From Pelagibacteraceae bacterium AG-337-G04 (GTDB lineage Bacteria; Pseudomonadota; Alphaproteobacteria; Pelagibacterales; Pelagibacteraceae), in NCBI GenBank assembly GCA_003282205.1, contig QBZW01000001.1, forward strand, positions 93,205-157,204: 64,000 nt of DNA, given 5' to 3'. Made by a program: the position numbers and the translations under genes. Shown here piece after piece: positions 7,164 through 16,419 of the stretch. Below the pieces are notes generated by a model that did not search any database, was not told the origin of the DNA, and saw nothing but the letters and a program-made list of their open reading frames with translations. Positions within the stretch are counted from its first letter, which is position 1, and the number at the start of each line of letters is the position of its first letter.

Positions 7164-7939
7164 TGATCATTAGCTCATGGAATGTAAATTCTATTAGAGC
7201 AAGAATACTTAATGTTCAGGAATACTTAAAAAAGTTCAATCCTGACATTGTATTAACTCAAGAGATAAAAACTAAAGAGGAAACTTATCCATTTGATGAT
7301 ATTAAAAAATTAAAATATGAAAGTTATGTATTTGGACAAAAAAGTTACAACGGTGTTGCTATACTTTCCAAAAAAAAATTAGATAAAATCGAAAAAGATA
7401 TATTTAAAGATAAAAACAAACAATCGAGAATAATTACAGCAGATGCAAAATATAAATCTAAAATTATTAAAATTATAAATATCTATACACCAAATGGTAA
7501 CCCGGTTGATACTGAAAAATATGATTACAAATTATATTGGCTAACCAGTTTAATAAAAAAACTTAAAACACTTTTAAAAAGTTATGATAATATAATTATC
7601 GCAGGTGACTTTAACATAATACCTTCTGCTGAAGATGTTCACGACCCCAAAGGATATGAAAATGACGCTCTTTTTAGAATTGAGATTAGGAAAAAATTAA
7701 GAGAAATATTTAATTTAGGATTTCACGATGCATTTAGATATATTTATCCAGATAAAGAGGAATATACTTTTTGGGATTACACAAGTGGCGCTTGGCAAAA
7801 AAATAATGGTATGAGGATTGATCACTTTTTAGTGACCAATAGTTTACTGAATAATATTAAGGATGTGAAAGTTAATAAATATCCAAGAGGTAGAGAAAAA
7901 CCATCTGATCATACACCGATTGAATTAGAATTAACTTAA
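7163..7939 (+). CDS. xth: Exodeoxyribonuclease III
   Basis: SWNVNSIR, QEIK, YNGVAI, GDFN, RIDH and SDH motifs. Likely start is the ATG at 7163 overlapping the erpA TAA, not 7133. Confidence 0.96.
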   Translation: MIISSWNVNSIRARILNVQEYLKKFNPDIVLTQEIKTKEETYPFDDIKKLKYESYVFGQKSYNGVAILSKKKLDKIEKDIFKDKNKQSRIITADAKYKSKIIKIINIYTPNGNPVDTEKYDYKLYWLTSLIKKLKTLLKSYDNIIIAGDFNIIPSAEDVHDPKGYENDALFRIEIRKKLREIFNLGFHDAFRYIYPDKEEYTFWDYTSGAWQKNNGMRIDHFLVTNSLLNNIKDVKVNKYPRGREKPSDHTPIELELT

Positions 7940-8929
7940 AGATTTAATTTTATTAACTAGATCCTCATTAATGTGTCTAGGTCCTTTATCTAATCTATTC
8001 TTATGTCTTCTTTCACCAGGAAGTCTGACATCACCCATTGCTTTCATTTTTTCAAAAAATTTTGAAGAATGATCATCCCAATTACTTTGTGATAATTTGT
8101 CTGGAGATATAGCTAAAATGAACTCTCCACCACTTGGAGGACCTCCGTCATTATTATCTTTCTCAGCTGTCTCATAACTAAAATTATCTCCTACTAAGGC
8201 TCCTGCAAGCAATTCGACCATCATTGCAATCCCTGAGCCTTTATAACCGCCGAAAGGCAATAAAACACCCCCATCTACAATTTCAGCAGGATCAGTTGTA
8301 TCTCTTCCCTCTTTTGTTAGTCCTGTTCCTAATGGAACTTTATGACCTTCTCTTTTGGCAACTTGAACTTCACCCATAGCCATTGATGCTGTTGCCATAT
8401 CATAAACGACTGGAGGTTTATTTTTTCTTGGCCAAGCAAATGATATTGGATTTGTTCCAAACAAAGGCTTAATTGCTCCAGCAGGCGCAACAGCCGGTTT
8501 ATATGATGTACATGCAAAAGCGACCAAACCCTGTTCTGCAATCATTTCAGTTTCAGGCCACATAGCTGCCATATGATGCGAATTTGTAATTGCTAAAATC
8601 GCAACACCACTTTCTTTAGCAAGTTTGATTAGTTCTGGAATACTTTTTTTTAAAACCACAGGAGCTAAGCAATTATTTCCGTTTGCTTTAATAACTGATG
8701 CTGATATTTTTTTTATATCAGGCTTGCCTTTACCATTAATTTTTCCACTTTTTAATCCTGCTACGTAAGCTGGAACTCTGAATAAACCATGCGATAAGGA
8801 TCCATCTTTCTCAGCTTTAGTAACTAAGTCTGCCATTATAGTTGCAGTTTCATCATCACAACCACTATTTAAAAAAGTATTTTTTGCTAGATTATAAATT
8901 TCATCTAACTCTAAAGATATATTGCTCAC
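7931..8929 (-). CDS. Ldh_2 (malate/L-lactate dehydrogenase-like) oxidoreductase, DpkA/ComC-like subgroup
   Basis: SHGLFR, SHHMAAMWPE, FGTNPISFAWP, DMATAS and GGYKGSG motifs; GTG start. Substrate cannot be assigned. Confidence 0.88.
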   Translation of the reverse strand: MSNISLELDEIYNLAKNTFLNSGCDDETATIMADLVTKAEKDGSLSHGLFRVPAYVAGLKSGKINGKGKPDIKKISASVIKANGNNCLAPVVLKKSIPELIKLAKESGVAILAITNSHHMAAMWPETEMIAEQGLVAFACTSYKPAVAPAGAIKPLFGTNPISFAWPRKNKPPVVYDMATASMAMGEVQVAKREGHKVPLGTGLTKEGRDTTDPAEIVDGGVLLPFGGYKGSGIAMMVELLAGALVGDNFSYETAEKDNNDGGPPSGGEFILAISPDKLSQSNWDDHSSKFFEKMKAMGDVRLPGERRHKNRLDKGPRHINEDLVNKIKSLS

Positions 8930-8972
8930 ACATCTATTAGATATTATTTAAGATTTATTTCAAATAGAATAT

Positions 8973-9707
8973 TTATTTATTTTTATCTTCCCACTCAAAA
9001 CGTGGAAACGAGTCAAAGATTTTAAAAATACCATTTGACCATTGATTACATACTTTTGAATACTCATCGTCAGTAAGATTTAAGCACTTTTGTGATGCAA
9101 TTTTATATTGGTCTTTTCTATAAACCGTAAAATCAATTGGTGGACCAACTGTTAAATCACTTTTTAATGTTGAGTCCATTGATATTAAAGCACATCTTGA
9201 TGCATCACCAACAGTGACTTCGGGTTTAATAACTCTATCTAAAATTGGTTTCCCGTATTTAACTTCGCCAATAACTAGATATGGCTTGCTATCGGCGGGT
9301 CTTATATAATTTCCTTGAGGGTAAACTAAATATAATTCCATTGGTTGCCCCTTAATCTGACCACCAATAACAAAAGTAGAACCCAGTAATACTGTGTCAG
9401 TGTTTATACCTTTAGGTGATGAATGTTCAATATTTAATGAGCCAATATATGAAGCAATCTGATCAAAATTTTCACAAGTATTTAAATTCATTATTCCAGA
9501 GGAATTCTTCAAATCATTTTGAATTGATTTATAAACTGCTTGAGAAGTTCCTAAATTACCTGAAGTAACAATAATAATTGTTCTATCCCCCACATCATAC
9601 GTGAACATTTTTGAATAAATATTTACGTTATCTAAACCAGCATTCGTTCTTGAGTCTGACGCAAAAACCAATCCGTCTTCTGCTTTGATGCCAATACAAT
9701 AAGTCAT
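8973..9707 (-). CDS. anbu: Proteasome-type Ntn hydrolase (Anbu family)
   Basis: M-TYCIG N-terminus exposes Thr1; Asp17 (ASDSRTNAG) and Lys32 positioned as in Anbu; YPQGN, IGEVKYGKPILDR and STLKSDLTVGPP motifs. Confidence 0.92.
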   Translation of the reverse strand: MTYCIGIKAEDGLVFASDSRTNAGLDNVNIYSKMFTYDVGDRTIIIVTSGNLGTSQAVYKSIQNDLKNSSGIMNLNTCENFDQIASYIGSLNIEHSSPKGINTDTVLLGSTFVIGGQIKGQPMELYLVYPQGNYIRPADSKPYLVIGEVKYGKPILDRVIKPEVTVGDASRCALISMDSTLKSDLTVGPPIDFTVYRKDQYKIASQKCLNLTDDEYSKVCNQWSNGIFKIFDSFPRFEWEDKNK

Positions 9708-9819
9708 TTGAATAATTTACTATTGAATTATAACATTAATTAATAATCTATTAAAAGCATAACTGCTATATCTATTATGCATTTGCTTATTCTATTCAAT
9801 TATTAAACATTATCTCGTT

Positions 9820-11265
9820 ATGGTCTCTAAACTATGGAAAAACTATAATGCTAAAAATGCTTATGATGGTTATTTCACAAAAGATAATAAGCTAAGAAAA
9901 CATGCAACTATAATTTCAGGTATCCTAGAAAGATACGGTAAGAAAAAACTTCAGGAAATAGAAAAGAACTGCCAAAGTACAATTAGTGCAAGAGGAATAA
10001 ATTTTAGAGTTTATGCTGCTAACAATCGTGCGGAAGAAAAAAAATGGCCATTGGATATAATTCCTAGAATAATACCAAAAAAACAATGGAACAAAGTTTC
10101 AAAAGGTTTGCAACAAAGAGTGAAGGCCTTAAATTTATTTATTGATGATGTTTATAATCAAAAGAAAATTTTTAAGGATAATGTAGTACCAAAAGAAATA
10201 ATTTTTAAATCTCCATTCTATGTAAAGGAATGTGATGGATTTTCACCAAAGCATAAAGCCTGGTCAAATATTTCAGGAGTTGATTTAATAAGAAATTCCA
10301 ATGGTGATTATTTAGTTTTAGAGGACAATTTAAGAGTTCCATCAGGAGTTTCCTACATGCTTGAGAATAGAATGGTAATGAGGGATGTTTTTCCAGAATT
10401 ATTTACAAGATATAAAGTTGCTTCTATCCATCAATACACAAACAAATTATTTAATTGCATGGTTGAATGTATTCCAAAAAAAACATCAAATCCTCATATG
10501 GTTGTTCTAACACCAGGTATTTATAATTCGGCCTACTTTGAACATTCATTTTTAGCTGAGCAAATGGGTATAGCTTTAGTGGAAGGAAAAGATTTGTTTG
10601 TTGAAAATGATATTGTCTATATGAAGACAGTCAAGGGACCCCTTAAGGTTGATTGTATTTATAGGCGATTAGATGACAATTTTTTAGATCCAAAAGTTTT
10701 TTTTAAAGGATCATTAATTGGTGTTCCTGGACTTTTTAAAAGTTGGAGAAAAGGAAATGTCGGTGTTATAAATGCGATAGGAACAGGTGTGGCTGATGAC
10801 AAAGTTGTTTATTCTTACGTAAATAAAATGATAGTTTATTATTTAGGAGAACAACCTATTTTGAATCAAGTAGAAACATACCTTTGCCACAACAAATCTG
10901 AGAGAGATTATGTAATTGAAAATATTGGTAAATTAGTTGTAAAGCCTGCAAATGCATCTGGGGGTTATGGAATTATGATTGGTCCAAAAGCTCCAAAAAA
11001 AGAACGAGAGGAAGTAATTGCCAAAATTAAGAAAAATCCAAGAGAGTATATTGCTCAACCATTAGAAACTCTTTCAACAGCTCCAACAATAACTGAAGAT
11101 GATATAGAACCTAGGCACCTTGATTTAAGACCTTTTGTTTTAAGTGGAAAAACTACATACGTAAGCACTGGTGGACTAACTAGAGTAGCTCTAAGAAAAG
11201 GTAGTACAATTGTAAATAGTTCTCAAGGTGGTGGTTCTAAGGATACACTTATTGTTGAAACATAA
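9820..11265 (+). CDS. Circularly permuted type 2 ATP-grasp ligase
   Basis: PLDIIPRII, GLQQRVKALNLFIDDVY, VLEDNLRVPSGVSYMLENR, LTPGIYNSAYFEHSFLA, YRRLDD, SGGYG, HLDLRPF and VNSSQGGGSKDT motifs; 481 aa, no fused alpha-E domain. Confidence 0.93.
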   Translation: MVSKLWKNYNAKNAYDGYFTKDNKLRKHATIISGILERYGKKKLQEIEKNCQSTISARGINFRVYAANNRAEEKKWPLDIIPRIIPKKQWNKVSKGLQQRVKALNLFIDDVYNQKKIFKDNVVPKEIIFKSPFYVKECDGFSPKHKAWSNISGVDLIRNSNGDYLVLEDNLRVPSGVSYMLENRMVMRDVFPELFTRYKVASIHQYTNKLFNCMVECIPKKTSNPHMVVLTPGIYNSAYFEHSFLAEQMGIALVEGKDLFVENDIVYMKTVKGPLKVDCIYRRLDDNFLDPKVFFKGSLIGVPGLFKSWRKGNVGVINAIGTGVADDKVVYSYVNKMIVYYLGEQPILNQVETYLCHNKSERDYVIENIGKLVVKPANASGGYGIMIGPKAPKKEREEVIAKIKKNPREYIAQPLETLSTAPTITEDDIEPRHLDLRPFVLSGKTTYVSTGGLTRVALRKGSTIVNSSQGGGSKDTLIVET

Positions 11266-11307
11266 TAATATTCATTTTATTTAAGAATTAATCAGCCTAA
11301 ATTCATT

Positions 11308-12099
11308 TTGATGAAAAATAACATAATAATTTTTACTGATCTAGACGGATCTTTGTTAAATACTCAAAATTTTAAATTCGAAAAAGCTAAATCACTGGTT
11401 AAAAAAATTATTAAAGATAGTAATTTTATAATTCCTAATTCAAGTAAAACAGAGTTAGAGATAAAAAATTTTATTAAGAAGTTAAAAATTAAACTTCCTT
11501 TTATAAGCGAAAATGGTTCTGAAATTCATAATCTAAATACTATCGAAAAAAAACTTCCTAAAAAGATTACAATTGCTCGTGATAGAAATACAATTTTGAA
11601 AATTTTTTTAAAAAATATGAGTGAAGAGATTTTAATAAAATGTGATTTTTTATATAAAATGGACAACAAAAAAAAAACTAAAATTTTAGGTTTAAAAGGA
11701 AAAGATTTAATTGCTAGTTCAAAACGAAAATTTACTTATCCTTTTATTTTTAAAGGAGATAATAAACTAAAAAAATTATTATTAAAAAAAACTTACAAGG
11801 CAGGTTTAGGTATTCAACAAGGAGGTAGAGTGATGAATTTAGGCGATAATGTAACTAAAGGGATGGCAATTAAAAAAACATTAAATTTTATTAAATCAGT
11901 TAATAAAAATAAGATTACAACTATTGCTGTTGGCGATAATCAGAATGATTTAAGTATGTTAAAAGTTGTAAAATATCCCTGTATTGTTTCAAATAGATTT
12001 ATCAAAATTAATAACAAAAATAAAATTTATACTAATAAAAAGGCTCCAGAGGGATGGATTGTGGTGGTCAAAAAGGCAATGGATAAAATAAATAAATAA
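11308..12099 (+). CDS. gpgP: HAD-IIB glucosyl/mannosyl-3-phosphoglycerate phosphatase
   Basis: FTDLDGSLL (DxD), NSSKT, ENGS and GDNQNDLSML motifs; adjacent to the synthase. Could equally be called mpgP. Confidence 0.82.
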   Translation: MMKNNIIIFTDLDGSLLNTQNFKFEKAKSLVKKIIKDSNFIIPNSSKTELEIKNFIKKLKIKLPFISENGSEIHNLNTIEKKLPKKITIARDRNTILKIFLKNMSEEILIKCDFLYKMDNKKKTKILGLKGKDLIASSKRKFTYPFIFKGDNKLKKLLLKKTYKAGLGIQQGGRVMNLGDNVTKGMAIKKTLNFIKSVNKNKITTIAVGDNQNDLSMLKVVKYPCIVSNRFIKINNKNKIYTNKKAPEGWIVVVKKAMDKINK

Positions 12100-12113
12100 A
12101 TTAATTTATAAAT

Positions 12114-13334
12114 ATGGGTGATTTTTCTCAAAACGGAATAGTAGCAAATCTTCATGATTTTTCGATACGAAGTACTGAGCAAATCGAAAAAGACTTATTA
12201 AAATTTTCTAAAGAGAGAAAATTAGAATTAATTTTACCTTGTCTTTATTCAGAACTTGAAGGAGATGCATTACCAAACATTGTTAATGAAATAAGCAAAA
12301 CTAAATATCTTAATCATGTCATAATTGGCTTAGATCAAGCTAATAAAGCACAAGCTAAAAAGGCATGGAAATTTTTTAAAAAGTTAAAAACATCTTTTTC
12401 TATTTTATGGAATGATGGTCCTAAATTAAAAAAATTAGATAAAGAACTAAAGAGTATTGATCTTGCCCCAAAACAAATGGGTAAAGGAAGAAATGTTTGG
12501 TATTGCATTGGTATGGCAATAGCTAGGGATGAAGCTAGATCTGTTGCTTTACATGACTGTGATATAAAAACTTATGATAGAAGGTTGTTAGCAAAACTTT
12601 TTTATCCTGTAGAAAACCCATTATTTAATTATGAATTTTGCAAAGGTTATTATCCAAGAATTGCTGATAATAAAATGCATGGAAGAGTAGCTAGATTGCT
12701 TGTTAACCCACTACTCACAGCAATGGAAAAAACAATAGGAAAAAGTGATTACATTGACTTTATGAAGTCATTTAAATACCCATTAGCTGGAGAATTTTCA
12801 TTTAGGAGAAACATTTTACCCGAACTTAGAATTTCATCAGATTGGGGAATTGAAATTGCTATTTTATCTGAAATGCAGAGAAATTATTCATCTAACAACA
12901 TATGCCAAGTAGAGTTAGCTGATAACTACGATCATAAACATCAGATATTATCTATCAAGGATAGTTCAAAGGGGTTATCTAAAATGTCTATTGATATAAT
13001 TAAAACATTAGTAAGAAAACTTGCAACACAAGGCTATTCTTTTAGCAAAGAAACTTTTAGATCAATTAAAGCAACGTATTATAGATCTGCTTTAGATTTA
13101 ATTGATATTTATAGAAGTGATGCTCAAATGAACGGATTAAAGTTTGATTCTCACAATGAAGAAAAAACAGTTGAGTTATTTGCTTTAAATATAATGAAAG
13201 CTGGTGAATCATTTTTTGAAAATCCGATGGATACACCTTTTATCCCAACATGGCATAGAGTAAAAAGTGCAATCCCTGATTTCTTAGACAGATTTAAGGA
13301 AAGCGTTAAAGCAGATAATAAAGAATTTAAATAA
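12114..13334 (+). CDS. gpgS: Glycosyl-3-phosphoglycerate synthase (glucosyl- or mannosyl-PG)
   Basis: MGDFSQNG..LHDF start; LPCLYSELEG, GKGRNVW, LHDCD (DxD), KGYY.R..GRV.RL, YPLAGEF and DWGIE motifs. Sugar specificity not provable from sequence. Confidence 0.82.
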   Translation: MGDFSQNGIVANLHDFSIRSTEQIEKDLLKFSKERKLELILPCLYSELEGDALPNIVNEISKTKYLNHVIIGLDQANKAQAKKAWKFFKKLKTSFSILWNDGPKLKKLDKELKSIDLAPKQMGKGRNVWYCIGMAIARDEARSVALHDCDIKTYDRRLLAKLFYPVENPLFNYEFCKGYYPRIADNKMHGRVARLLVNPLLTAMEKTIGKSDYIDFMKSFKYPLAGEFSFRRNILPELRISSDWGIEIAILSEMQRNYSSNNICQVELADNYDHKHQILSIKDSSKGLSKMSIDIIKTLVRKLATQGYSFSKETFRSIKATYYRSALDLIDIYRSDAQMNGLKFDSHNEEKTVELFALNIMKAGESFFENPMDTPFIPTWHRVKSAIPDFLDRFKESVKADNKEFK

Positions 13335-13343
13335 TCCCAATCT

Positions 13344-14378
13344 TTAACAACCTTTAAAAGATTTAGACATATTTCTTATTAAATCAAAGTATAAATCTTT
13401 TCCTGGGGTTAGAGTTGCACCAAGTGGATCTAAAACACCTGTTTTAATATCCATATCTTTAGCAACAGCATTAATTATATCAGGATTAAATTGTGGCTCT
13501 GAAAATACACATGCAACTTTATCATGTTCTATCACTTCTCTTATTTCTGCTAATTGTTCTGCACCAGGCATTACATCAGTATTAACTGTAAATGCACCAA
13601 GAACATTAACATTAAATCTTTTTTCAAAGTATTGATAAGCGTCATGGAAAACTATTGAAGATGTGCTTTGATTTAAATCAGTCATAACTTCAATAGTAAG
13701 TTTATCGATATCTTTAAGAGCTTTTTTTAAATTACTTTTATAAGTTGAAGCATTTTTTGCATCATTTTCAATTAAATGTTCAACCATTTCATTTAAAATT
13801 ACTTTAGCATTAATAGGGTCTAACCAAATGTGTGGATCATGTTCACCGTGGTGATGTCCTTCATGACCGTCGTGATCATCATGATCATCTTTTTTCTTGT
13901 GGTCGTGATCATCATGGTCATCTTCTTTTTTAGCATGATCATCGTGGTCATCATGATCGTCTTTTTTCTTGTGGCCATGATCGTCGTGTCCATGATCATC
14001 ATGGTCGTCAAAAATATTTCTCTCTCTGAATTTTAATTTGTTTAATCCTTTAATTTCTAATAACTCGATTTTTTCTGCTTTTTTAGCAATTGAGTCTAAA
14101 GGCTTTTCTAGAAAATTTTCTAAATCCTCACCTACCCAAAAAACAATATCTGCATTTTGTAACATTTTTGCATGTGAGGGTTTTAAAGCAAAACCGTGTG
14201 GCGATGCATAACCATCAACTATAAGATCTGGCTTAGCTACTCCATCCATTAAATAACTAGCTAATGAATGAATAGGTTTTATTGATGCTACAACTTTAAT
14301 ATCAGCATTTGCTGATGTAAAAAAAGTTAAAAATGATAAGAATGATAAGATTATTGTGGATTTTGTTAGATTTTTCAT
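13344..14378 (-). CDS. znuA: Zinc ABC transporter substrate-binding protein
   Basis: Signal peptide; VVASIKPIHSL, SPHGFALKPS, His/Asp-rich loop, DPHIWLDP and FHDAYQYF motifs. Confidence 0.96.
   Translation of the reverse strand: MKNLTKSTIILSFLSFLTFFTSANADIKVVASIKPIHSLASYLMDGVAKPDLIVDGYASPHGFALKPSHAKMLQNADIVFWVGEDLENFLEKPLDSIAKKAEKIELLEIKGLNKLKFRERNIFDDHDDHGHDDHGHKKKDDHDDHDDHAKKEDDHDDHDHKKKDDHDDHDGHEGHHHGEHDPHIWLDPINAKVILNEMVEHLIENDAKNASTYKSNLKKALKDIDKLTIEVMTDLNQSTSSIVFHDAYQYFEKRFNVNVLGAFTVNTDVMPGAEQLAEIREVIEHDKVACVFSEPQFNPDIINAVAKDMDIKTGVLDPLGATLTPGKDLYFDLIRNMSKSFKGC
13866..13973 (-). repeat. Three imperfect 36-nt tandem units within the ZnuA His/Asp loop (HKKKDDHDDHDD / HAKKEDDHDDHD / HKKKDDHDDHDG)
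   Basis: Read directly: units at 13938-13973, 13902-13937 and 13866-13901. Confidence 0.9.
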
Positions 14379-14397
14379 AATATTGTTTTTTAATTTT

Positions 14398-14430
14398 TGT
14401 TATAATATAACATAATGTAATAATATAACA
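14398..14430. promoter_or_regulatory. Two tandem Zur boxes between divergent znuA and znuC
   Basis: Perfect 7-1-7 palindrome TGTTATAATATAACA (14398-14412) and a one-mismatch copy TGTAATAATATAACA (14416-14430); both match the proteobacterial Zur consensus TGTTATAnTATAACA. Confidence 0.88.
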
Positions 14431-14450
14431 TCTTGAAGTCAAGTGGATAT

Positions 14451-15197
14451 ATGAGTTTAGAAAAAAATATATTAGTAAAGTTAAATAATGTTGGGATTCA
14501 ACAAAATGATAAGTGGCTCGTAAAAGGAGTTTCGCTGGAGGTTGAAAAAGGAAAAATAGTAACTTTAATTGGACCCAATGGTTCTGGGAAAAGTACAACA
14601 GCTAAAATTGCTTTAGGTATATACAAAAATATAGAGGGAAATGTTGAAAAATTTACAAATAATGTTGGATATGTCCCTCAAAAAATATCGATAGATTGGA
14701 CTCTCCCTTTAAGAGTCAAAGATTTCATGGTTTTGACAGATAATATTAAAGATGAATTGATAGATGTTGCTTTGTCATTAACCGGTGTTACACATCTTAA
14801 AGAAAAAAATTTAGGAAATTTATCAGGGGGTGAATTTCAAAGAGTTTTGCTTGCAAGAGCCATATCAAAAAAACCAGAATTATTAGTTCTGGATGAGCCA
14901 GTTCAAGGAGTAGATTTTACTGGAGAAATTGCACTGTATGAATTAATTAAAAAAATCTCCGAAAAACTTAATTGTGGAATATTATTAATATCTCATGATT
15001 TACACACTGTCATGACTGCAACAGACCATGTTGTTTGTTTGAATGGACATGTCTGTTGTTCAGGTTCACCAAAAGATGTAGCACGCAATAATGAATATAA
15101 AGCTTTATTTGGGGAACAAGCTTCTCAAACATTATCTGTTTATGAGCACAAACACGACCATGAACATTCAAATGACGGAGAAATAAAAAAAAATTAA
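14451..15197 (+). CDS. znuC: Zinc ABC transporter ATP-binding protein
   Basis: GPNGSGKS, LSGGEFQR, LDEP and C-terminal HKHDHEH motifs. ATG at 14451 preferred over the TTG at 14433. Confidence 0.95.
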   Translation: MSLEKNILVKLNNVGIQQNDKWLVKGVSLEVEKGKIVTLIGPNGSGKSTTAKIALGIYKNIEGNVEKFTNNVGYVPQKISIDWTLPLRVKDFMVLTDNIKDELIDVALSLTGVTHLKEKNLGNLSGGEFQRVLLARAISKKPELLVLDEPVQGVDFTGEIALYELIKKISEKLNCGILLISHDLHTVMTATDHVVCLNGHVCCSGSPKDVARNNEYKALFGEQASQTLSVYEHKHDHEHSNDGEIKKN

Positions 15198-15198
15198 T

Positions 15199-16002
15199 AT
15201 GTTTGATGACTTTTTTATAAGAGCTTTGGTTGCTGGTATTGGGATAGCGTTTGTTACTGGACCACTTGGATGTTTTGTTGTTTGGAGAAGATTATCTTAT
15301 TTTGGAGACACATTAGCTCACTCTGCTTTACTTGGAGTAACAATTGCTTATACACTTGAATTCAATATTGCAGTTTCAATATTTATTACCTCATCAATAA
15401 TTGCACTTATTTTAGTTAAACTTGAAAAAAAAACTAATTTACCAGGTGACGCCTTATTAGGACTTTTAGCTCATTCATCTCTTGCGGTTGGATTAGTTGC
15501 TATTGGATTTTTAACATTTATTAGATTTGATATAATGGGATTGTTATTTGGTGATATTTTAGCAGTAACTACTGATGATTTACTTACAATCTGGATCGGG
15601 GGTGCTTTAATTTTATTGGTTTTAAGATTTATATGGAAACCATTATTTGCATCAACTGTAAATTATGAATTGGCTGAGGCAGAAGGTTTAAATCCAGATA
15701 GAGCTAAAGCTATATTTACAATTTTAATAGCAGCAATAATTGCAATATCTATTAAAATGGTTGGCTTATTGCTTATTACAGGAATGTTAATCATACCAAC
15801 TGCTATGGCTAGAAACTTATCAGATAACCCACAAAAGATGGTTATATTTTCAATAATTGGCGGGTTACTGTCAGTATTTATTGGGCTATTCTCCTCATTA
15901 GAATTCAATACTCCATCTGGTCCTTCTATCGTAGCAGCTGCGCTAGTATTATTTATTTTTTCATTATTTAAAATTAAACAAACGATTCAATTGAAAAATT
16001 AA
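15199..16002 (+). CDS. znuB: Zinc ABC transporter permease
   Basis: GPLGCFVVWRRLSYFGDTLAHSALLG, LFGDILAV and PSGPSIV motifs. Confidence 0.96.
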   Translation: MFDDFFIRALVAGIGIAFVTGPLGCFVVWRRLSYFGDTLAHSALLGVTIAYTLEFNIAVSIFITSSIIALILVKLEKKTNLPGDALLGLLAHSSLAVGLVAIGFLTFIRFDIMGLLFGDILAVTTDDLLTIWIGGALILLVLRFIWKPLFASTVNYELAEAEGLNPDRAKAIFTILIAAIIAISIKMVGLLLITGMLIIPTAMARNLSDNPQKMVIFSIIGGLLSVFIGLFSSLEFNTPSGPSIVAAALVLFIFSLFKIKQTIQLKN

Positions 16003-16026
16003 TGAAGTATTATAAAAAATAATAAT

Positions 16027-16419
16027 ATGCAAAAACAAGAAACATTATCTAGAAACCAAAAAATAATATTAGATTTAATAGAAAAATCTGATCAACCATT
16101 AAAAGCATATTCAATTTTATTTGATGTTAAAAAAAAGGGTATTAATGCACCTTTGCAAGTATATAGAGCTCTGGATAAATTAGTGGAGATTGGAAAGATA
16201 CATAAAATAGAAAGTAGAAATGCTTTCATTGCTTGTAAAAATTCAAAATGTCAAATTGCAAAAGCTACTGTTTTTTCAATTTGTGAAAGTTGTGAAGATG
16301 TAACTGAAATTCATGATCATAAACTATCAGAACACTTAAGAAATTTTAAAGATAACAAAGGAATGAAATACAATAAATACAATTTGGAATTTTTTGGCCT
16401 GTGCAAGAAATGTATATAA
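16027..16419 (+). CDS. zur: Fur-family zinc uptake regulator
   Basis: KAYSIL..PLQVYRALDKL..IHKIES wHTH, CESC and C-terminal CKKC; within the znu locus. Confidence 0.88.
   Translation: MQKQETLSRNQKIILDLIEKSDQPLKAYSILFDVKKKGINAPLQVYRALDKLVEIGKIHKIESRNAFIACKNSKCQIAKATVFSICESCEDVTEIHDHKLSEHLRNFKDNKGMKYNKYNLEFFGLCKKCI

Follow-up and report, generated by a model that had tools for sequence, protein, structure and literature searches.

A two-gene Anbu module without Alpha-E and transglutaminase is widespread in SAR11 bacteria

We report that a 64,000-nucleotide stretch of the genome of Pelagibacteraceae bacterium AG-337-G04 (contig QBZW01000001.1, positions 93,205 to 157,204; the whole stretch is referred to as the window), a member of the SAR11 bacteria, carries a two-gene version of the Anbu (ancestral beta-subunit) system. 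The canonical four-gene operon encodes a circularly permuted (CP) ATP-grasp ligase (COG2308), Alpha-E (COG2307), a transglutaminase-like protein (COG1305) and Anbu (COG3484) (PMC3235984, PMC5666114, PMC6376114), and what Anbu does has been an open question since 2008. The window has the ligase and Anbu genes and neither of the other two. Comparative analysis of related genomes shows that this natural two-gene module, which is widespread in SAR11, is a real and new variant of a known but unexplained system; its ligase and Anbu are intact, under strong purifying selection, and inherited and moved as one divergent unit.

The gene pair in the window

The Anbu and ligase genes are arranged head-to-head with 112 bp between them (Table 1). 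An earlier note on this DNA had predicted this layout of open reading frames (ORFs), and its coordinates, lengths, strands and intergenic distance all proved correct.

Table 1. Features of the Anbu-ligase locus and of the genes downstream of the ligase (positions refer to the window)
Feature	Position	Strand	Basis
Anbu (ancestral beta-subunit) N-terminal nucleophile (Ntn) hydrolase, 244 aa	8973..9707	(-)	ORF, PDB Anbu matches and PF00227
Predicted divergent promoter region common to both genes, 112 bp	9708..9819	strandless	Gap between head-to-head ORFs
Palindrome CATAACTGCTAT (consensus CATRNCWGNTAT), candidate operator for both genes	9758..9769	strandless	Conservation across loci
Second conserved box, GCATTTG (GCAWTTG)	9779..9785	(+)	Alignment of 21 loci
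Stand-alone circularly permuted ATP-grasp ligase (COG2308 type), 481 aa	9820..11265	(+)	PF14403/PF04174, PDB 3n6x
Glucosyl/mannosyl-3-phosphoglycerate phosphatase-like haloacid dehalogenase (HAD) protein (gpgP-like)	11308-12099	(+)	NCBIfam TIGR01486, E 7e-44
Glucosyl-3-phosphoglycerate synthase (GpgS)	12114-13334	(+)	GpgS_Meth, E 7e-109
ZnuA with long His/Asp-rich insert	13344-14378	(-)	Zinc-uptake cluster
ABC ATPase	14433-15197		Zinc-uptake cluster
Permease	15199-16002		Zinc-uptake cluster
Small Fur/Zur-like regulator	16027-16419		Zinc-uptake cluster

The 244-residue protein matched the solved Anbu structures 5loy, 5nyj, 5lox, 5nyf and 5nyw over residues 1-240 with E-values from 7e-63 to 1e-47; archaeal 20S proteasome beta subunits reached E ~1e-3 only, and the match to PF00227 scored 36.7 bits. 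The protein starts with MTY, i.e. the Thr stands directly after the initiator Met and there is no propeptide. Across 38 aligned homologues Thr2 and Lys33 never vary (38/38) and Asp18 is present in 37/38 (counted from the Met; these residues equal Thr1, Lys32 and Asp17, respectively), and Ser176, Asp178 and Ser179 are invariant as well. Structure matches and alignment hence agree with the earlier assignment of an Anbu-type Ntn hydrolase with Thr1, Asp17 and Lys32 intact. A separate HslV gene is present elsewhere in the same genome and Anbu is therefore no replacement for HslV.

For the ligase, PF14403 was matched from end to end (profile positions 1-374 of 374, E 1.5e-155), PF04174 with an E-value of 5e-131 and PDB 3n6x over residues 15-479 (E 1.8e-142), as had been anticipated for a stand-alone CP-ATP-grasp ligase of 481 residues. 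Among the 38 homologues 110 of its positions are invariant, and CP_ATPgrasp families were the only ones returned by a Pfam search at E<=0.01.

Search for Alpha-E and transglutaminase genes

We searched the whole genome in six frames with profile hidden Markov models (HMMs) and found no match at E<=1 for Alpha-E (PF04168) or for Transglut_core (PF01841), Bact_transglu_N (PF08379) and Transglut_core2 (PF13369), and the same searches gave matches in control genomes. Likewise, tblastn found nothing in the genome (best E 0.02) when queried with 15 Alpha-E proteins, eight of them from SAR11, and with six ORFs that canonical operons have between Alpha-E and Anbu; five of these ORFs are ~270 aa long, the length of the operon transglutaminase. 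The genome comprises 1.33 Mb in 23 contigs and is estimated to be 96.4% complete; in G126, a single-contig genome of the same genus that carries the pair, our search detected no Alpha-E and no transglutaminase core either. The earlier statement that neither gene is present at the locus or in the window is thus extended to the genome as a whole, and with both types of search empty here, and G126 likewise without the partners, we rejected the idea that the partners are scattered elsewhere and that the module is merely dispersed.

Proteins with a transglutaminase core do occur in other SAR11 genomes. These are TgpA-type proteins of 645 aa, and the operon-type transglutaminase is ~276 aa long and consists of Bact_transglu_N and the core domain. 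The TgpA-type proteins were rejected as the transglutaminase of the module, to which they are unrelated, since they mostly reside in genomes without Anbu.

Presence of the pair among SAR11 genomes

The distribution of the pair was studied in an even sample of 151 Pelagibacteraceae genomes representing 19 genera, many of the genomes being incomplete single-cell or metagenome assemblies. The ligase is present in 37/151 and Anbu in 37/151 of them, nearly always in the same genomes, which belong to six of the 19 genera, and wherever both genes were assembled whole they are neighbours on opposite strands. The module is accordingly an accessory trait of approximately one quarter of the sampled Pelagibacteraceae, with ~75% of them lacking it. 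In a collection of species genomes at least 552 stretches encode a relative. The best 80 of these all belong to records with the name Pelagibacteraceae or Candidatus Pelagibacter (hereafter the 80 named loci), and in each of the 80 the pair is divergent and Alpha-E is missing from the flank. Moreover, metagenome collections contain more than 7,900 protein clusters (at 90% identity) with a match to Anbu at E<=1e-30.

Taking the 80 named loci together with 21 two-gene loci studied in detail, the two genes are always divergent with an intergenic distance of 105-115 bp and Alpha-E is absent from the flanks, while the flanking genes vary widely from locus to locus such that the pair is the sole invariant unit. 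No third gene conserved beside the pair and no small gene conserved in its flanks was found in the 21 loci. We also considered a hidden gene for a small substrate, or an upstream ORF; a 9-codon ORF that begins at the ATGCATTTG box is present in some loci, and this candidate was rejected as the start codon is missing in about half of them. The distribution, which the earlier note had proposed to profile as a check, hence identifies the pair as a co-inherited unit that occurs in six genera and in many genomic contexts.

The alleles of the two genes form a mosaic. In L017 (G126) and L039 (G463) the ligase is 94-95% identical to that of the window and the adjacent Anbu 81-83%, and in L037 and L038 the order of similarity between Anbu and ligase is reversed, which points to recombination breakpoints within the intergenic region or close to it.

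In the open-access literature on Anbu or the proteasome in Pelagibacter, SAR11 and HTCC7211, we found one table entry only, i.e. a SAR11 gene listed in a survey as "20S proteasome A/B subunit, HTCC7211 only" and enriched at BATS, the Bermuda Atlantic Time-series Study site (PMC3686209).

Three-gene form and evolutionary history

Alpha-E is present in 3/151 of the family genomes and in 8/51 genomes of the genus to which the window belongs. In these SAR11 genomes it is always located 3-4 bp downstream of the ligase gene, with Anbu divergent as in the two-gene form (Anbu<- ->ligase-AlphaE), and no transglutaminase gene adjoins the three-gene loci. The canonical order ligase > Alpha-E > transglutaminase > Anbu, where Anbu is the last gene and co-directional, was thus not found; in all SAR11 loci examined, Anbu and ligase diverge. 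The three-gene loci have a genomic context unlike that of the window and their proteins are 59-62% identical to the window's.

Maximum likelihood trees were computed for both proteins and rooted by outgroup only, using nine alphaproteobacterial Anbu operons. All SAR11 sequences, two- and three-gene alike, constitute one clade (100/100) in both trees, and in the ligase tree the two forms are sister groups. The outgroup operons have the canonical order in seven of nine cases (Alpha-E was missed by BLAST in the other two), and one of the nine has no gene between Alpha-E and Anbu. L050 (G380:C9, 5608-8848) is an alphaproteobacterial operon with the co-directional order ligase > Alpha-E > Anbu and nothing between the latter two, and looks like another layout without transglutaminase.

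The closest relatives that we found outside SAR11 belong to another class of the same phylum. The best of these, G629, shares 46% (Anbu) and 53% (ligase) identity with the window proteins and has the exact three-gene divergent layout; as in the three-gene SAR11 clade, the gap is ~100 bp and transglutaminase is missing, two features that the two-gene form has as well. In an even sample of the class (250 genomes), Alpha-E is present in 50/51 genomes with an Anbu-like match, the exception being a weak Anbu match of 28% identity. In a sample of the phylum (240 genomes) the corresponding number is 67/68 Anbu-positive genomes. The exception, the non-SAR11 proteobacterium G624, is an uncertain case: it has a solitary Anbu of 39% identity (L057, G624:C88, 6035-6775), no ligase or Alpha-E within 6 kb of Anbu and no Alpha-E match in the genome sequence searched.

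Because the same three-gene layout is also present outside SAR11, the module was probably reduced from four to three to two genes, as far as the direction of change can be read from gene content and trees. The loss of transglutaminase probably predates the arrival of the module in SAR11, or its diversification there, given that another class has the same divergent layout without transglutaminase. Most parsimoniously, a divergent three-gene form would then have pre-existed and been inherited or acquired by SAR11, and the two-gene clade would have lost Alpha-E a single time, at its base. The earlier note attributed the pair to a streamlined genome that kept only the ligase and the hydrolase. The pair alone is indeed kept; streamlining is not a sufficient cause because ~75% of the sampled SAR11 genomes lack the module altogether and equally small genomes of the same genus keep the three-gene form with Alpha-E.

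Selection and the ligase C-terminus

Ratios of nonsynonymous to synonymous substitution rates (dN/dS) were calculated according to Nei-Gojobori for pairs with unsaturated dS, and medians are given. For Anbu the ratio is 0.090 in the two-gene and 0.070 in the three-gene form, for the ligase 0.094 and 0.077, and for Alpha-E, which is present in the three-gene form only, 0.123. The earlier note took both genes to be kept functional and named a dN/dS near 1 as the sign of the contrary; the value is ~0.09 for both, close to the values of the three-gene form, and relaxed selection on either gene was rejected. Remodelling of the enzymes specific to the two-gene type was rejected as well, since T61N and E252A are the only fixed differences in the ligase of the two-gene clade, with a few further positions changed (including W477), and Anbu has zero fixed changes.

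The change at W477 concerns the C-terminal KDTW motif of the ligase, which reads KDTL in the window protein. All 20 Alpha-E-linked ligases examined retain this Trp, as does 3n6x, and in 21/21 two-gene ligases it is replaced by Leu, Met or Ile. In many bacteria Alpha-E is fused to the ligase C-terminus (ORFs of 800-950 aa carrying Alpha-E) and the Trp is therefore a plausible Alpha-E docking contact. The pattern of replacement suggests, as a lead rather than a test, that this contact was lost on the same branch as Alpha-E.

The region between the two genes

The palindrome CATRNCWGNTAT is present in 57/57 distinct intergenic sequences from the 80 named loci. Its centre is at the midpoint, 51-56 nt away from the ATG of Anbu and 53-56 nt away from that of the ligase, and the palindrome is recognisable across the six genera while the intergenic sequence around it diverges. 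The three-gene form has a different intergenic sequence, without the palindrome. In its own genome the palindrome is the only strong match (the next-best, weaker site lies inside a coding region). A wider regulon for the motif was rejected, as no other credible site is present in the genome and the motif is absent upstream of unlinked copies of the glucosylglycerate genes gpgP-gpgS (see below).

A second box, GCAWTTG, is located 9-10 nt beyond the palindrome; it is conserved in the alignment of the 21 loci and present in 41/57 of the distinct sequences. Judged by its position, GCATTTG probably contains the -35 TTG of the ligase promoter. Sigma-70-like hexamers were predicted in both directions, which is weak evidence in AT-rich DNA. 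On the basis of conservation and position, we regard the palindrome as a candidate shared operator between two predicted divergent promoters.

Searches against Rfam at E<=1 gave no family, and so no glutamine riboswitch, in positions 7500-13600 of the window. For the three-gene loci L014, L044 and L047 and for G629, Rfam returned only thiamine pyrophosphate (TPP) riboswitches away from the module and no glutamine riboswitch. Riboswitch control of the module was rejected on these grounds.

Genes for glucosylglycerate synthesis

Downstream of the ligase, gpgP follows after 42 bp and gpgS after a further 14 bp, all on the ligase strand. We detected no terminator-like site between the ligase gene and gpgP, and the spacing is consistent with gpgP-gpgS possibly being co-transcribed with the ligase gene. 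The matches to TIGR01486 and GpgS_Meth are both below the equivalog cut-offs.

The two genes adjoin the pair in 5/21 loci from two genera, in four (including the window) after the ligase and in one after Anbu, and a gpgP homologue is present within 2.5 kb of Anbu in 15/80 of the named loci. In the family sample 13/151 genomes have gpgS and 11/13 of these carry the pair (Fisher p = 3e-6), with the two unlinked in six of the eleven; in the window's own genus gpgS is present in 7/9 two-gene, 0/8 three-gene and 5/34 module-less genomes (p = 2e-4), where both p-values overstate the association since related genomes are not independent. Glucosylglycerate is a solute of nitrogen-poor conditions and the genes for its synthesis are specific to offshore SAR11 genera (PMC12636525). 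The association is most simply read as the result of a shared nitrogen-poor niche.

At loci without linkage of gpgP-gpgS to the pair, gpgS is often followed by an overlapping or abutting ORF of 570-590 aa (L061 1601-3328, L064 4509-6269, L066 4295-6058, L067 1343-3064 and L068 1759-3480); this ORF is missing from the window's copy.

Discussion

We favour, with moderate confidence, the interpretation that the pair is a derivative of the Anbu system for which two genes suffice, in which ligase and hydrolase act on a common, Alpha-E-independent class of substrates, are co-regulated from the central operator and serve the nitrogen economy of the cell; for the genomic part of this interpretation our confidence is much higher. 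The pair is conserved as a unit without Alpha-E in six genera and Alpha-E is therefore not an obligatory substrate or cofactor, in keeping with the earlier suggestion that the enzymes act on something else. The reaction of ATP-grasp enzymes proceeds through an acyl-phosphate to an amide. By analogy, the SAR11 ligase would activate a carboxylate as acyl-phosphate and join it to an amine, and the N-terminal Thr of Anbu would hydrolyse the amide bond in the product, or in molecules marked by the product. Ligase and hydrolase would then be the catalytic core and Alpha-E and transglutaminase dispensable accessories, and both core genes would be co-regulated from the palindromic operator at the midpoint of the 105-115 bp promoter region. 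The ligase of the canonical operon in Y. bercovieri releases phosphate from ATP (PMC6376114). The physiological setting would most likely be nitrogen economy in nitrogen-poor offshore water, because the pair travels with the glucosylglycerate genes and nitrogen limitation induces canonical Anbu operons, the one of P. putida being the most induced operon there (PMC3235984, PMC5666114).

Several observations weigh against this interpretation. The alleles of Anbu and ligase have been reshuffled between strains, which speaks against tight allele-specific co-adaptation; such shuffling fits enzymes that are linked via their substrate rather than through a tightly co-evolving interface. The palindrome, which has no assigned binding protein, could be mere promoter architecture. 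The Trp replacement and the loss of Alpha-E map to a single branch, so that their correlation amounts to one event. With respect to nitrogen, 26/37 pair-carrying genomes have no gpgS, 5/12 gpgS-positive genomes of the window's genus have no pair, the palindrome is absent upstream of unlinked gpgPS (10 loci), and the association with gpgS may reflect the shared niche alone. Furthermore, for no Anbu system do we know of a substrate, a product or an activity, and to our knowledge the four operon proteins form no stable complex. Finally, purified Anbu proteins were without peptidase activity (PMC6376114).

Among the competing explanations, one that is possible but not probable is that the ligase tags protein carboxylates (C-termini or Glu side chains) with an amino acid or peptide in the manner of RimK or tubulin ligases, and that a self-compartmentalising Anbu degrades or de-tags the marked proteins, giving more protein turnover under nitrogen starvation; the role of Alpha-E in other bacteria would then be that of an adaptor only. 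Anbu, a homologue of proteasome beta subunits, has the complete Thr1 catalytic set, the pair persists under selection without Alpha-E, the module is linked to nitrogen limitation (PMC3235984), and hypotheses of the same kind have been published (PMC6376114, PMC5666114), all of which accord with tagging and trimming. However, Anbu proteins are inactive on proteasome substrates (PMC6376114), no conserved gene for a target or small protein travels with the pair in the 21 loci, the genome retains a separate HslV, and no AAA+ unfoldase partner is known.

A small-molecule substrate falls within the interpretation favoured above. We consider it doubtful, although worth stating, that the amide which the module would form and hydrolyse is on a small metabolite and not on a protein, the module acting as a nitrogen-sparing or nitrogen-buffering switch in offshore SAR11. 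Candidate metabolites are an amidated or amino-acid-conjugated compatible solute, e.g. a glucosylglycerate derivative, and a polyamine or glutamate conjugate. If true, such an amide cycle would be the first defined chemistry for any Anbu system and would make a relative of the proteasome a metabolite amidase.

A more specific proposal, and in our judgement a very unlikely one, is that the ligase amidates the carboxylate of glucosylglycerate, or of a related acid, and Anbu removes the amide, such that a charged solute is interchanged with a neutral one or a nitrogen store is formed. The analogue would be the mannosylglyceramide of Rhodothermus, for which we know of no identified amidating enzyme. 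The position of gpgP-gpgS 42 bp downstream of the ligase here, after the ligase in three more loci and after Anbu in one, the lack of a terminator-like site found between the ligase gene and gpgP, and the pair in 11/13 gpgS-positive family genomes are what such chemistry would lead one to expect; the 26 pair-carrying genomes without gpgS, the absence of gpgS from the three-gene sister form (0/8), the lack of the intergenic palindrome at unlinked gpgPS loci and the wide occurrence of canonical Anbu operons in bacteria are not. The notion that the two genes are unrelated or decaying neighbours by descent, a relic of the operon without joint function, could draw on the independent recombination of their alleles between strains and is close to refuted by the dN/dS of ~0.09 for both genes with invariant catalytic residues, their coinciding presence and absence across the 151 genomes, their constancy as a unit amid changing flanks and the conserved central palindrome between them.

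The canonical operon is known from e.g. P. aeruginosa, Y. bercovieri and Hyphomicrobium and is reportedly treated by Iyer et al. 2009. The SAR11 proteins are orthologous to those of proteobacterial members (33-46% identity for Anbu and 43-53% for the ligase) and have the same catalytic residues, and a link to nitrogen limitation is plausible for both systems. The SAR11 pair differs in that its genome is devoid of Alpha-E and transglutaminase, in its divergent orientation, and in being an accessory element in a streamlined genome of 1.3 Mb. Valas and Bourne stated in 2008 that there was no genome with Anbu and without transglutaminase (PMC3235984); the SAR11 pair contradicts this universal co-presence. 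Relative to the three-gene SAR11 form, the two-gene form lacks the Alpha-E gene 3-4 bp downstream of the ligase and the ligase C-terminal Trp, and has the palindrome and, in the sample, the co-occurrence with gpgS.

The E. coli glutathionylspermidine synthetase/amidase (Gss) couples an ATP-dependent amide ligase to an amidase that undoes the bond. The likeness to the SAR11 pair is a functional analogy only, and 3n6x, the closest solved relative of the SAR11 ligase, was deposited as 'putative glutathionylspermidine synthase'. In contrast to the SAR11 pair, where the hydrolase is an Ntn hydrolase and the ligase has no GSP_synth match in Pfam (E<=0.01), the amidase of Gss is a fused CHAP domain.

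The two-gene variant rules out Alpha-E and transglutaminase as obligatory substrates or cofactors and is the smallest Anbu system to reconstitute. Together with the three-gene form it offers a matched natural comparison inside one genus, and three handles are at hand: the palindrome at the centre, the Trp lost from the ligase C-terminus and the association with genes for glucosylglycerate synthesis. For the ecology of SAR11, which are among the most abundant organisms on Earth, the pair represents an unrecognised and environmentally patterned accessory trait.

Other genes near the pair

Three of the three-gene SAR11 loci have a TPP riboswitch ahead of a gene for a sodium:solute symporter, ~1 kb from Anbu (L047 5738-5825, L014 5075-5162 and L044 5137-5222, all on the (-) strand). 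The riboswitch scores are below the Rfam gathering score (E 1e-6 to 3e-3), and the symporter is probably a thiamine-precursor transporter.

In the window, Anbu is followed after 43 bp by a same-strand gene for an Ldh_2-family dehydrogenase of the malate/L-lactate/sulfolactate/ureidoglycolate type (7931-8929, (-)), and among the loci examined this gene is found beside Anbu in the window only. On the other side, gpgS is followed by a zinc-uptake cluster (13344-16419; Table 1), which in several genomes of another genus adjoins the ligase, with or without gpgPS in between.

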